From an uncultured Gemmatimonadales bacterium (lineage in GTDB: Bacteria; Gemmatimonadota; Gemmatimonadetes; Longimicrobiales; RSA9): 64,000 nucleotides of DNA. The stretch covers positions 1,056,001-1,120,000 of the forward strand of contig OY970192.1 in NCBI GenBank assembly GCA_963708135.1. The letters are read 5' to 3'. A program made the translations under genes and the position numbers. Below the pieces are notes generated by a model. That model was not told the DNA's origin and searched no databases. It saw nothing but the letters and a program-made list of their open reading frames with translations. Shown here one piece after another: positions 57,827-61,829 of this stretch (positions are counted from its first letter, which is position 1; each line of letters starts with the position of its first letter).

Positions 57827-59284
57827 ATGAAGCTGACGTTCCGCCACGGGGTTCACCCCCCGGAATCGAAGGAGCTGACGGAGCACGTGCCGTTGCGGCG
57901 CCTGCCGTTCGCGGCGGAGCTCGTGCTCCCGCTCCGGCAGCACGCGGGAAAGCCGGCCGTCCCGCTCGTGAAGGTCGGGGACCACGTGCAGCGGGGCGAC
58001 CGGATCGCCGAGGCCGACGGCTTCGTCTCCTCGCCCGTGCACGCCTCGGCGGCCGGCGTGGTGAAGTCGATCGGCTGGTGGCCGCACCCGGACGGGACCA
58101 TGGCGGAGGCGATCCGGATCGCGGTGGACCGCTACTCGCCCCACATCCCGCGGCCGCGCATGGTGCCGCACTGGGAGGGGCTCTCGGCCGCGCAGGTGGT
58201 GAAGGCCGTGCAGGACGCGGGCGTGGTCGGCCTCGGCGGCGCCGCCTTCCCGACGCACGTCAAGCTCTCGCCGCCGAAGGACGCGAAGATCCACACCCTG
58301 ATCGTGAACGGCGCCGAGTGCGAGCCGTACCTGACCACGGACCACCGGACCATGGTCGAGTACCCGGAGCGCGTGCACTTCGGCGTGCGCATCATGATGA
58401 AGGCGCTCGGCGTCGCGCGAGCCGTAATCGGCGTCGAGATGAACAAGCCGGACGCCATCGAGCGGCTGCGCGCCACCCGGCCCGGGGACCTCGACGTCAC
58501 GATCCTGCCGCTCACGGTGAAATATCCGCAGGGCGCCGAGAAGATGCTGATCGAGGTGGTCACCGGGAAGCGGGTGCCGTCCGGCAGGCTGCCGCTGCAC
58601 GTGGGCGTGGTGGTGCAGAACGTCGGCTCGATCGCCACCATCGCGGAGGTCTTCGAGACCGGGCTGCCGCTGGTCGAGCGGATCGTCACCATATCGGGCC
58701 ATGGCGTGCGCCGCCCCTCCAATCTGATCGTGCCCGTCGGCACGAAGATCCGCGATGCGCTCGAGTTCTGCGGCGGGCTCAGGGAGGACGCGAGCGAGAT
58801 CGTGTTCGGCGGCCCGATGATGGGCACCTCGCAGCCGGACCTCGATACGCCGATCATCAAGGGCACCACCGGCGTGATCGTGCTCAGGCACGCCGACACG
58901 CCGCGCCGCGAGACGCTGCCCTGCATCCGCTGCGGCCGCTGCCTCGACGCCTGCCCCGTCTTCCTGAACCCCTCGCAGCTCGGGCTGCTCGCGCAGGCCG
59001 GCCGCTACGAGGACATGGAGGCGCTGCACCTGGCCGACTGCATGCTGTGCGGCTCCTGCTCCTACGTCTGCCCGTCGAGCATCCCGCTCAGCCAGATGTT
59101 CTCGCTGGGCAGGACGGCGCTGCGGAAGCTGAAGGCGGCGGAAGCCGCGAAGGCGAAGGCGGAGGCCGCGGCCCGCGGGGCGGCGGAGGGCGGCGTCGCC
59201 GCCAGCGGGCCCGGCGGCGCGGCGGCCGGTGCATCGGCCCCGGCCGGCGGCGCGGCCGCGCGGAAGGAGGCGGTGCCCGCATGA
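57827..59284 (+). CDS. rnfC: Rnf complex subunit C
   Basis: GVHP, QHAG, GLGGAAFPT, NGAECEPYLT, KYPQGAEK, GGPMMG, CIRCGRC, CMLCGSC. Confidence 0.95.
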   Translation: MKLTFRHGVHPPESKELTEHVPLRRLPFAAELVLPLRQHAGKPAVPLVKVGDHVQRGDRIAEADGFVSSPVHASAAGVVKSIGWWPHPDGTMAEAIRIAVDRYSPHIPRPRMVPHWEGLSAAQVVKAVQDAGVVGLGGAAFPTHVKLSPPKDAKIHTLIVNGAECEPYLTTDHRTMVEYPERVHFGVRIMMKALGVARAVIGVEMNKPDAIERLRATRPGDLDVTILPLTVKYPQGAEKMLIEVVTGKRVPSGRLPLHVGVVVQNVGSIATIAEVFETGLPLVERIVTISGHGVRRPSNLIVPVGTKIRDALEFCGGLREDASEIVFGGPMMGTSQPDLDTPIIKGTTGVIVLRHADTPRRETLPCIRCGRCLDACPVFLNPSQLGLLAQAGRYEDMEALHLADCMLCGSCSYVCPSSIPLSQMFSLGRTALRKLKAAEAAKAKAEAAARGAAEGGVAASGPGGAAAGASAPAGGAAARKEAVPA

Positions 59285-59310
59285 GACACCCTGTGTCAAC
59301 CCCCCTGTGT

Positions 59311-60558
59311 TCAAGCAGCCGCCGCGGTGGGTTCCGCGGGGGTGAAGAAGGGGATAGCCCGTCCGTGTCGGGAGGGGTCGTAGGTGGACCGATTGTGCCA
59401 GCAGCGCCACAGCACGCGGACCCAGGCTCGGGCGAGGATTCGGATTGCGTGCGGGTGATCGCAGCCGCGGGCACGGGCGCACTTGTAGACGGCGGCGGCC
59501 CAGGGGTGGGCATGGCGGGAGTTGTCCGCCCAGGTGGTGAGGGCTTGTCGCAGGCGCTTGTTGCAGGCGAAGCGGCAGGCGACGCCGCGATGCTTGCCGG
59601 AGCTGTGCGTAACGGGGGCGACGCCGGCTTCGGCGGCGAGCTGGGCGTCGGTGGCGAAGCGGAGCCGGTCGTCGCCGAGCTCGGCGAGAATCTGGGCGGC
59701 ATTGATGGTGCCGGTGCGGGGGAAGGACTTCAGGATCTCACCGTCGGGATGCTGCGCGAGGTGAGCGGCGATGAGCCCGTCGAGCTCGCGGATCTGAGCC
59801 ACGAGAGGGCGGAGGACGGCGACCAGGGAACGGACGAGCTGACCTTTGGTCTCGCTCTCGAGCTCGGCGGCCTGCCCTGCGGGGGCGGAGCGGAGCCGCT
59901 CGAGGAGCTGATCGACCGGCCGGCGGCCGCAGTAGGCAGTGCGCTTGAGGAATCGTTCGAGGCGCTTGGGCCCGAGGCGGGCGGCGCTCTCCGGGGTGGG
60001 GTAGGCGTCCAGGAAATCGAGGGCGATCGGGCTATCGACATCGGCGAAAATGGCGGCAGCGCCGGCCCAGAAGCTGTCGAGCAGGCTGCGGAGCTGATTG
60101 GCGAGCTGGACGCGGGTCGCGACCAGGTCATCGCGGGTGCGAACGGCGGCGCGAAGCGCCTTGGTGCGATCGGAGGGGACCCGGAGCGGCCGGAATCGAT
60201 GCCCATCGGTACGCAGGACGTCGGCGAGGATGTAGGCATCACCGGGATCGCTCTTCCCCGGAGCCGCGGCGTAGCGGGGCCGGGTGGCCTTGAGGGCGTT
60301 CGGGTGGATCGGAACGACCGGGAAGCCGGCCTCGACCAACGTATCCACCAGAAGTCCGGACGGCCGCTCGATGGCGATGGGCAGCTGCGCCGGAGAGCTG
60401 ACGCGACGCAGGCGCCGGATCAGCTCACTCAGCCCACCGGCCGTGTGAGGGATGGTGAACGCGTCAACGAGGGCGCCGCTCAGATCGAGCACACAGACGT
60501 CATGCTTGTCGCTGGCCCAGTCAATTCCGACGAGGTAGCTTGGATCCAGTCCTTCCAC
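59311..60558 (-). CDS. IS110 DEDD recombinase
   Basis: GIDW, AIE, KSDPGDA (DEDD); C-terminal AGVAPVTHSSG with the catalytic Ser. Confidence 0.95.
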   Translation of the reverse strand: MEGLDPSYLVGIDWASDKHDVCVLDLSGALVDAFTIPHTAGGLSELIRRLRRVSSPAQLPIAIERPSGLLVDTLVEAGFPVVPIHPNALKATRPRYAAAPGKSDPGDAYILADVLRTDGHRFRPLRVPSDRTKALRAAVRTRDDLVATRVQLANQLRSLLDSFWAGAAAIFADVDSPIALDFLDAYPTPESAARLGPKRLERFLKRTAYCGRRPVDQLLERLRSAPAGQAAELESETKGQLVRSLVAVLRPLVAQIRELDGLIAAHLAQHPDGEILKSFPRTGTINAAQILAELGDDRLRFATDAQLAAEAGVAPVTHSSGKHRGVACRFACNKRLRQALTTWADNSRHAHPWAAAVYKCARARGCDHPHAIRILARAWVRVLWRCWHNRSTYDPSRHGRAIPFFTPAEPTAAAA

Positions 60559-60589
60559 GCCTCACCTCCGAGCAGAGATTCACTCCCTC

Positions 60590-60765
60590 GCTCCGGCGTT
60601 GGAAGGTCTCACCGATCGCTCACTGAAAGGCGCTCTCGGCTTCAGGTGCCGTGGCGCTACACCCTGTGGTCGGTTGGGGCCTTCCACGCCGGGCAGGGGA
60701 GCGGGTCTCATGCGGGCCGTCGAGCGGCAAGCGACGCTGGCTCTCCCTACCCGGACGCCGAAGCA
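60590..60765 (-). ncRNA. Putative bridge RNA of the IS110 element (ends approximate)
   Basis: Two stem-enclosed internal loops whose guides match the target flanks and the donor junction (see findings). Confidence 0.8.
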
Positions 60766-60815
60766 CTTCTCTTGAGCGGCGCGAATCTACGCCCCGCTGA
60801 GGGTAAGGTGCACCA

Positions 60816-61829
60816 GTGAGCGAGCTCGACGCGGGCCGCCTCCAGATCGCGGCCTCGCCCCACATCCAGGCGGCCGACAGCACCGAGCGGATCATGTGGA
60901 CGGTGGTGGCCACGCTCGTGCCGATCGTGGGCGCCTCCTTCTGGTTCTTCGGCCTGGGCGCGCTGCTCGTCATCGCCAGCGCGACGCTCGGCGCCATGGC
61001 CACCGAGCGCGCGTTCGGCCGGCCGCGCGCGCTCCGCGACGGCTCCGCCGCCATCACCGGGCTGCTCCTCGGGCTCACGCTGCCGCCGGGATTCCCGCTG
61101 TGGATGGCGGCGATCGGCGGCGCCTTCGCGATCGGGCTGGGCAAGCTGATCTTCGGCGGGCTGGGGCAGAACGTCTTCAATCCCGCGCTGCTCGGGCGCG
61201 CGTTCCTGCAGGCGGCGTTCCCCACGGCCATCACCACCTGGCCCACGGTCGGGCAGGGATGGACCACGCTCTACCCGTCCAACTTCGCGTTCCCCTTCGT
61301 GCAGGCGGCGCCCGACGCGGTCACCGCCGCCACGCCGCTCGGGCTCATGAAGTTCGAGCACCACATGACGGACGTGCTGCCCATGATCACCGGCCATACC
61401 GGCGGCTCGCTCGGCGAGACGGCGGGTGCCCTGATTCTCATATGCGGCGCCTACCTGGCCTGGAAGCGCTACCTCGACTGGCGCATCCCGACGAGCATCA
61501 TCCTCACCGTGGCCGGGCTGAGCGCGCTGCTGCACCTGTTCGGCGGCGAGCGCTTCCCGACCGCCGGCTTCATGCTCTTCTCCGGCGGGCTCATGCTCGG
61601 CGCCGTCTACATGGCCACCGACATGGTCACCTCGCCCACCACGCCGAAGGGGGCCTGGATCTTCGGCTTCGGCATCGGCGCGCTCGTCGTGCTGATCCGG
61701 ATCTGGGGCGGGCTGCCGGAGGGCGTCATGTACGCGATCCTGCTCATGAACGCGCTGGTGCCGTTCCTGAACCGCTGGACGCAGCCGCGCGTGTTCGGTA
61801 CGCCGGGTCGGAAGGAGGCCGCAGCGTGA
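60816..61829 (+). CDS. rnfD: Rnf complex subunit D
   Basis: SPH, FGGLGQNVFNPA, AATPL, GGSLGET, MATD, EGVMYAIL; polytopic membrane protein. Confidence 0.95.
   Translation: MSELDAGRLQIAASPHIQAADSTERIMWTVVATLVPIVGASFWFFGLGALLVIASATLGAMATERAFGRPRALRDGSAAITGLLLGLTLPPGFPLWMAAIGGAFAIGLGKLIFGGLGQNVFNPALLGRAFLQAAFPTAITTWPTVGQGWTTLYPSNFAFPFVQAAPDAVTAATPLGLMKFEHHMTDVLPMITGHTGGSLGETAGALILICGAYLAWKRYLDWRIPTSIILTVAGLSALLHLFGGERFPTAGFMLFSGGLMLGAVYMATDMVTSPTTPKGAWIFGFGIGALVVLIRIWGGLPEGVMYAILLMNALVPFLNRWTQPRVFGTPGRKEAAA

Follow-up and report, generated by a model that had tools for sequence, protein, structure and literature searches.

Overlaps of four nucleotides between a stop and a start codon, ATGA or GTGA, are typical of translationally coupled cistrons. 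Among insertion sequences (ISs), IS900 and IS901 insert between the Shine-Dalgarno (SD) sequence and start codons (PMC2942039, PMC8141618), the IS900 target motif being CATGNNNNNNTCTCCTT, and IS900 carries hed (host-expression-dependent), a complementary-strand open reading frame (ORF) that spans the element without a ribosome-binding site or start of its own (PMC8141618). In bridge-RNA elements of the IS110 family such as IS621, a DEDD recombinase works with an RNA, encoded in the left end (LE), whose internal loops bind target and donor, and the junction of right end (RE) and LE in the excised circle re-creates a promoter (Durrant et al. 2024, PMC11208160). The seekRNA of IS1111 types also guides through short matches to both strands around a small hairpin (Siddiquee et al. 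2024, PMC11187229). The present study concerns an IS110-family element in a 64,000-nt stretch (the window) of an uncultured Gemmatimonadales genome (GCA_963708135.1, contig OY970192.1, positions 1,056,001 to 1,120,000 of the forward strand), where it separates rnfC from rnfD. We consider it probable that this is a bridge-RNA-guided IS whose clade, found in many phyla, is adapted to insertion at start sites, always antisense to the host gene, with pass-through coupling onto the gene downstream. Comparison of junctions and guides shows that the guide directs insertion to (G)C-xTG-AG-C, antisense to the host gene; that TGAG is duplicated, whereby an overlapping upstream stop is preserved and an element G or A plus TG rebuilds the start; and that a frame-locked antisense ORF extends from the SD and start codon captured from the host as far as a stop that overlaps the new start codon. 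Operon-internal stop/start overlaps of 4 nt, such as that at rnfC/rnfD, are the commonest context.

At the window locus, rnfC (57827..59284, plus strand, from the ORF list; Pfam domains RnfC_N, Complex1_51K, SLBB and Fer4) retains its TGA stop (59282-59284) within the left copy of a 4-nt TGAG (59282..59285; in transposase orientation CTCA, the core CT plus CA), and the right copy of TGAG occupies 60817..60820, both placed by alignment of four copies of the element. Between them lies the element proper (59286..60816, minus strand, from the same alignment), of 1531 bp, or 1535 bp with one core copy. The original rnfD start ATG (59281..59283, plus strand), which overlaps the rnfC stop as ATGA, remains at the RE junction, and the original rnfD SD sequence, AAGGAGG (59264..59270, plus strand), now stands 10 nt 5' of this ATG, which opens an antisense pass-through ORF. 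At the LE junction the rnfD start is rebuilt as GTG (60816..60818, plus strand), with the G from the element and the TG from the right core copy; it overlaps the TGA of the pass-through ORF as GTGA and is preceded at 5 nt by the SD-like AAGGTG (60805..60810, plus strand; spacer CACCA, 60811-60815). Read from this GTG, rnfD (60816..61829, plus strand) encodes 337 aa with an NQR2_RnfD_RnfE domain over residues 11-328 (profile positions 2-296 of 296); it is intact, it is the sole rnfD of the genome, and it is followed by an FMN_bind (RnfG-like) gene and an Rnf-Nqr (RnfE-like) gene. An earlier reading of the window made from its letters alone (the sequence-only reading) had described an element on an ATGA overlap, with the rnfC TGA intact, a GTG in frame with rnfD and AAGGTG 5 nt upstream, and all of these points hold.

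Since TGAG is present at both junctions (59282-85, 60817-20), we infer that the empty site read ...GCCCGC-ATGAGC-GAGCTC. The xTGA overlap is kept at the rnfC/rnfD junction of same-family relatives from other genera, and near-identical junction words in two relatives (GCCGCATGAGCGAGCC in L014, CGCATGAGCACG in L007) support this reconstruction. Among contigs of four DNA runs, no contig bridging the empty rnfC-rnfD site of this organism was found; contigs assembled from one of these runs (X1) end at 59279/59280 and 60822, as a repeat predicts. A joint between 59095 and 61170 (X3) was not used as evidence of an empty site, its shorter side being 31 letters at 90% likeness. In addition, one X1 contig leaves the LE junction (window 60822) into a flank unlike all four in the genome, which suggests an extra insertion site in the sampled population or in a close relative.

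The genome, a single contig of 5.45 Mb with 72% GC, holds four near-identical copies, which differ at two internal alignment columns only. In window orientation all four read (C/G)C-ATGAG[element]CCAG-TGAGC-(G/A), and this shared layout indicates a C-ATGAGC target with TGAG flanking each copy. Three of the four occupy start codons of long ORFs with high GC content at third codon positions (GC3), namely rnfD, a gene for a 598-aa amidase-domain protein and a 219-aa ORF, and this is already unusual, since start-like sites make up only about 9-17%, according to the test used, of the 1453 CATGAGC sites in the genome. Only at the rnf copy does an upstream gene end in the core TGA.

The LE (60559..60816, minus strand; 258 nt) does not code for the transposase and encodes the predicted bridge RNA. 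The target-binding loop (60705..60737, minus strand) consists of a left target guide (LTG), GCGUCGCU (60737-60730), identical to the target left flank plus core; the hairpin GCCG-CUCGA-CGGC; a right target guide (RTG), CCGCAUGAG (60715-60707), complementary to the core plus right flank; and AC (60706-60705), which matches the RE end. The donor-binding loop (60616..60668, minus strand) consists of a left donor guide (LDG), CACAGGGUGU (60668-60659), equal to the RE end; a right donor guide (RDG), CAGUGAG (60625-60619), complementary to the core plus LE start; and CGA (60618-60616), which matches the target left flank. This layout of LTG/RTG and LDG/RDG is that of IS621, in which the LTG is identical to the left target on the top strand, the RTG is the complement of the right target on that strand and both pairings include the core (PMC11208160), and the position of the RNA upstream of the transposase is of IS110 type, in contrast to IS1111 types, in which the RNA lies downstream and the inverted repeats are subterminal (PMC11187229). 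Terminal inverted repeats were not seen when the ends, CTGGTGCACC... and ...ACAGGGTGT, were read, no dedicated repeat search having been made. The difference from IS621 is that the guide of the window element encodes a start codon and that the element carries a translational pass-through frame. As the sequence-only reading had noticed, AUGAG stands within the target guide (GCCCGCAUGAGAC, minus strand, 60717-60705). With an RTG that reads (C)CGCAUGAG and a left guide whose last letters are GCU, the target becomes (G)C-ATG-AG-C. In its general form, (G)C-xTG-AG-C, the target set by the guide is a start codon with AG(C) after it, and not the upstream gene.

Homologs support this guide assignment. 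Folded with RNAalifold, 25 aligned LEs form two stems that enclose large internal loops, with compensatory changes in 29 of 42 pairs; in the LE alignment the RDG changes together with the LE start, as the LDG does with the RE end; and the RTG tracks the right flank over at least seven guide variants, among them CAUGAG with flank CTCATG, CGUGAG with CTCACG, CUUGAG with CTCAAG (five Geminicoccaceae copies), AAAUGAG with CTCATTT, GGGGGAG with CTCCCCC and GGAGGAG with CTCCTCC. The guide is thus evolvable, as its joint change with the flank indicates, yet it is held on the start codon plus AG in most lineages. A scan of 59000-61100 against Rfam 15 at E<=1 gave no match, which means only that no curated model fits. 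In two loci, L082 and L085, the RTGs GGGGGAG and GGAGGAG are SD-like words instead of a start codon, reminiscent of the IS900 target, and neither junction opens a recognisable gene.

The family was surveyed in 80 loci, taken from one genome per species, with transposases 54-89% identical to that of the window; their record titles place them in Gemmatimonadota, Longimicrobiales, Rokubacteria, Acidobacteriota, Alphaproteobacteria, Chloroflexota, Actinomycetota and other groups. The RE end hardly varies (TTGACACAGG(G/A)(T/A)GT-CTCA), and the CTCA is followed mostly by TG(C/G) and sometimes by CG or AG, which on the other strand give ATG, GTG and TTG. The LE starts with GCTCA(C/T)TGGTGCACCTT or a variant, on the host strand AAGGTGCACCA(G/A)TGAGC. 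The LE junction could be placed in 66 of the 80 loci (57+9), the remaining 14 having no recognisable LE or running into a contig end, and the four copies of the window's genome were added to the homolog sites. A junction codon was scored as a start when it opened an ORF of >=100 codons, or of >=30 codons open to the contig end, in the frame with the highest GC3, at distinct sites with >=95 nt of flank. By this test a host gene starts exactly at the LE junction in 40 of 58 distinct sites. Among the 37 homolog passes, 32 host ORFs of >=60 aa were scanned and 30 have Pfam domains (for example GFO_IDH_MocA, FAD_binding_3, DAO, CN_hydrolase, NifU_N, Iso_dh, MurJ and Response_reg-LpxC); the matches mostly run from profile position 1-4 within the first ~28 residues, which argues that the junction codon is the native N-terminus. 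On the other side, 24 of 52 right flanks contain a long upstream ORF that has the core TGA as its stop and lies in the frame with the best GC3. The first codon position is richer in GC than the second (GC1>GC2) in host orientation in 23 of these 24 ORFs, and Pfam domains reach the C-terminus in 17 of the 21 scanned. Operon-like pairs, upstream gene first, include an aromatic lyase with an N-formylglutamate amidohydrolase (FGase), an ABC ATPase with a permease, a PhyR-type sigma protein with NepR, DAHP_synth_1 with a cytidylyltransferase, and two ketosynthases. Moreover, 21 of 52 sites have an SD-like 4-mer at -4..-16 relative to the original start codon, compared with 8 of 52 in a shifted window. 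By a stricter six-frame test of the upstream flank, 15 calls fell on the same strand in the TGA frame and 10 in its mirror frame, where third positions coincide, and we regard the mirror-frame calls as ties in view of the GC1>GC2 and Pfam results just given. In a control, ORFs reading away from the RE junction were called in 5, 13 and 2 of 52 flanks by frame, one frame being inflated by the mirror effect.

When both flanks were informative (42 loci), the junctions can be set against the 1450 CATGAGC sites of the window's genome, of which 16.6% are starts: 16 loci (15 without L075) are stop/start overlaps compared with 44 genome sites (3%), 11 are plain starts compared with 196, four have an upstream stop only compared with 16, and 11 have neither compared with 1194. 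The stop/start overlap is thus the commonest context of the family and not a requirement. The sequence-only reading had warned that one site could be a coincidence and had proposed that all copies and homologs be scored at ATGA junctions; the same geometry at the three other copies of the genome and in homologs from many phyla amounts to more than coincidence, and the survey came out largely in its favour at the family level. Its suggestion of a safe harbour that leaves both neighbouring ORFs translatable is likewise supported at that level by the start, stop and overlap counts. Its further suggestion, that the element is programmed for coupled gene junctions, that is, for ATGA-type overlaps and not for starts in general, is in our view unlikely. 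Overlaps do form the largest single class, and among start sites an upstream core stop is present in 16 of 27 compared with 44 of 240 (CATGAGC) or 24 of 69 (GCATGAGC) start-like genome sites. Nevertheless, the rnf copy is the only one of four on an overlap, more than a quarter of the informative loci are plain starts and as many are neither, and a guide has no means of detecting a reading frame upstream. Relative to plain starts, the excess of overlaps is ~2-6 fold on a one-genome baseline and may reflect weaker selection against insertions inside operons. One lineage speaks for this suggestion: in a single Geminicoccaceae assembly (L090-L095; guide CUUGAG, target CGCTTGAG) an upstream gene ends at the TGA in 4 of 5 right flanks and a gene starts at only 2 of 6 junctions, so that this lineage seems to have retained the stop codon, and not the start, as its landmark.

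A further adaptation to the site, which the sequence-only reading had not noticed, is the frame-locked antisense ORF that ends in a new stop/start overlap. In the window this ORF (59281..60819, plus strand; 512 codons) opens with the captured rnfD ATG, traverses the element from end to end and closes with the TGA at 60817-60819. Among 55 elements with both ends, the core-to-core length is 2 mod 3 in 50, and in 22 of the 25 distinct lengths (1457 to 1616 bp). The frame is open from the captured start in 47 of the 55, in 40 to an xTGA and in seven to a TGA whose last letter begins the rebuilt ATG (TGATG), whereas the other two antisense frames contain 4-20 stops. At least 18 different LE lengths are 1 mod 3, and three others (246, 267 and 342) are exceptions; the RE spacer from the transposase stop to the RE end (10, 16, 25 or 37, by reading of the alignment) is always 1 mod 3. 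Within the LE alone, 41 sequence clusters contain 11 stops in the junction frame (6 of the TGATG type) compared with 74 and 40 in the other two. A constraint on LE length from an N-terminal extension of the transposase was considered and rejected, since none of the 41 LEs is open in the sense frame of the transposase. Within the transposase genes, the codons TTA, CTA and TCA occur 6 times in 13,500 codons, compared with 28.8 expected at the rate of adjacent host genes. From these family data we conclude that the openness and register of the antisense frame are under selection. Three more distant IS110-family transposase genes of this genome (L110-L112; G000:C1:810864-838968, ~28 kb) have one antisense stop each, and a spanning antisense ORF is present in none of the three.

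Such a frame invites comparison with IS900. The two elements share orientation-specific insertion at initiation signals, a transposase antisense to the host gene (as also in IS901) and an element-long ORF on the complementary strand that lacks a ribosome-binding site and a start (PMC8141618), so the initiation-targeting behaviour with an antisense ORF is already known. If the antisense ORF were a real element gene like hed, targeting of initiation signals would serve a second protein and the rescue of the host gene would be incidental; the IS900 precedent and the conservation of the frame in most members speak for this. In the IS900 literature, targeting is reportedly in the service of hed expression. 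Several results make this explanation quite improbable. The 512-aa antisense product matches no Pfam family; in the one pair compared it is 38% identical, whereas the transposases are 64% identical; ~250 nt of the ORF overlap the structured bridge-RNA gene; and a stop that overlaps the rebuilt start would be needless for a stand-alone protein. The much faster divergence of the antisense product points to a conduit rather than a selected protein, and its amino-acid sequence is probably not under selection. Some features also separate the window family from IS900, the comparison being one of description and not of sequence: the crossover falls within xTG-AG and not between SD and ATG (CATG N4-6 * CNCCTT / CATGNNNNNNTCTCCTT), the start is rebuilt from an element base, and the antisense stop overlaps this start. 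The hosts differ as well, since IS900 and IS901 are mycobacterial and the window clade occurs in Gemmatimonadota, Acidobacteriota, Rokubacteria, Alphaproteobacteria, Chloroflexota and others. Insertion immediately 5' of an intact ATG is confined to the Actinomycetota relatives L098-L102.

Herein, we propose that the element behaves as one more translationally coupled cistron. First, the host SD and start codon left at the RE junction would launch ribosomes into the antisense frame. These ribosomes would cross ~1.5 kb in an open frame and terminate at a UGA that shares letters with the rebuilt start, as GUGA, AUGA or UGAUG, where the SD-like AAGGUG might help termination-reinitiation coupling onto the displaced gene. 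Second, a transcript covered by ribosomes would avoid Rho-type polarity. Third, read-through from the host, being antisense to the transposase, would keep the integrated copy quiet, the promoter reassembled in the excised circle being the sole source of transposase and bridge RNA. The likeness to a coupled cistron lies in the antisense frame, which runs from the host start to an xTGA overlapping the next start as an operon gene would, and the difference is that this 'cistron' is the reverse strand of the transposase and guide-RNA genes, with a product that looks unconstrained. In a stronger wording, which we think only somewhat probable, a phylum-spanning bridge-RNA clade would be 'translationally transparent', with its guide on a start or stop/start overlap and the whole element an extra coupled cistron that leaves the operon genes behind it unsilenced; in that case bridge-RNA gene, junction-promoter -10 box and transposase gene would each be doubly encoded with the conduit.

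The role of AAGGTG deserves caution. In the RE (59286..59310, minus strand; reading ...GGTTGACACAGGGTGT in transposase orientation and conserved across the family), a perfect TTGACA (59299..59294, minus strand) is the likely -35 of a junction promoter, a role suggested by the principle that joining RE to LE in the circle recreates a sigma-70-type promoter (Durrant et al. 2024, PMC11208160). In the excised circle this TTGACA is followed by 18 nt and then by CACCTT, the reverse complement of AAGGTG, and other members have TACCTT, CAACCT or CACCCT in the same place; as a -10 candidate, CACCTT or TACCTT shows by reading only the A2 and T6. AAGGTG may thus occupy the position of the expected -10 box, and a double use as SD and -10 is possible, the two being inseparable by sequence. 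The SD function that the sequence-only reading assigned to AAGGTG thus has a rival in this box. No terminator-like or promoter site was found in 59100-61000 on either strand, by a linear scan that misses a circle-junction promoter.

Several points weigh against our proposal. Translation of the antisense frame and re-initiation at the GTG at 60816 are steps that we infer from the sequence, and the conservation of AAGGTG is not independent evidence for an SD, a -10 box being expected there. The near-identity of the four copies suggests that the insertion may be recent, in which case an intact rnfD is little informative, and one copy (c4; G000:C1:630487-632017; L004:3038-4073) lies in the 3' part of an EamA-like transporter ORF, which runs opposite to the other host genes and co-directional with the transposase and now extends 67 codons into the LE. 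In the family, 18 of the 58 sites fail the start test, one pass (L075) is false, being internal by Pfam (profile 362-456 of 472), and the frame is closed in 8 of the 55 elements. Gene starts and ends were called by ORF and GC3 heuristics, not curated annotation, with Pfam backing 53 ORFs, the baseline comes from one genome only, the unpublished genome G015 supports none of the claims, and related elements are not statistically independent, so that simple counts overstate significance. Finally, an exact-antisense frame is open in 61% of 415-codon gene segments of this high-GC3 genome, and the transposase-overlapping part of the frame is thus unremarkable for a single element. It could be argued that there is no adaptation to starts at all, that a short CATG motif is targeted, that purifying selection filters the sites and that the open frame is a by-product of high GC3. 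The shortness of the specified target (about 7-9 nt), the abundance of CATGAGC in the genome and the guides that no longer read a start codon (L082, L085 and L064/L069) are in line with this. It is nevertheless highly improbable in view of features of the element itself that go beyond site selection: the length register, the LE register with its few exceptions, the depletion of LE stops in one antisense frame and the ~5-fold depletion of TTA, CTA and TCA in the transposase, together with the overlap of the stop with the rebuilt start and the retention of CAUGAG or CGUGAG in a programmable guide across phyla.

If pass-through coupling is true, this selfish element neutralises its own polar effect by imitating an operon cistron and not by avoiding genes. 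This would explain the intact-looking genes behind the element, which include MurJ, LpxC and isocitrate/isopropylmalate dehydrogenase domains and Rnf subunits, and would tie the old and poorly understood hed observation in IS900 to the bridge-RNA mechanism. The clade would also be a natural case of a programmable guide held on a genomic landmark, the start codon plus AG, across phyla, and it suggests design rules for bridge-recombinase cargo that spares downstream expression. For annotation, genes behind such elements may start at a GTG or ATG that is partly element DNA. The sequence-only reading knew of no earlier description; targeting of initiation signals and hed were on record for IS900 and IS901, and the overlap and coupling aspects were not found. 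In the available portions of the 2024 bridge-RNA and seekRNA papers (PMC11208160, PMC11187229) there is no mention of targeting of start codons or overlaps or of an element-spanning antisense ORF. Searches of full-text literature, supplements aside, found no report of translational coupling or stop/start overlaps for IS110 elements, translational coupling being mentioned in PMC3469429 only for IS66. By these searches, the crossover in the start codon, the rebuilt start overlapping the antisense stop, the cross-phyla evidence from mod-3 lengths and stop avoidance, the RTG spelling a start codon and the excess of operon-internal stop/start overlaps appear to be new.

The transposase itself (59311..60558, minus strand; 415 aa) carries the domains DEDD_Tnp_IS110 (PF01548, E=2.4e-37, residues 10-163) and Transposase_20 (PF02371, E=2e-17, residues 274-358). 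Some relatives show further variation at the ends. In the Actinomycetota contigs L098-L102, the LE starts with TACTGGTCCACCCTTCTTG right after an intact host CAT (ATG), which places the insertion immediately 5' of the start codon, and this LE resembles the IS900 repeat motif ACCTTTCTTGAAGGGTG as printed in PMC8141618. In L093 (2117-2226), ~110 nt of LE, extending to the hairpin of the target-binding loop (...GCTTGCCGCTCGACGGCCCG), abut a complete copy at CG|CTCA, and the host ORF (510 codons, ABC_tran) begins at the outer partial LE; this looks either like an element recombined into another copy, within its guide-coding DNA, or like an aberrant tandem. In L048 (2207-2246), the LE terminus is duplicated in a 20-bp tandem (GCTCATTGGTGCACCTTCGG twice), and the length with the inner copy is 1490 (2 mod 3).

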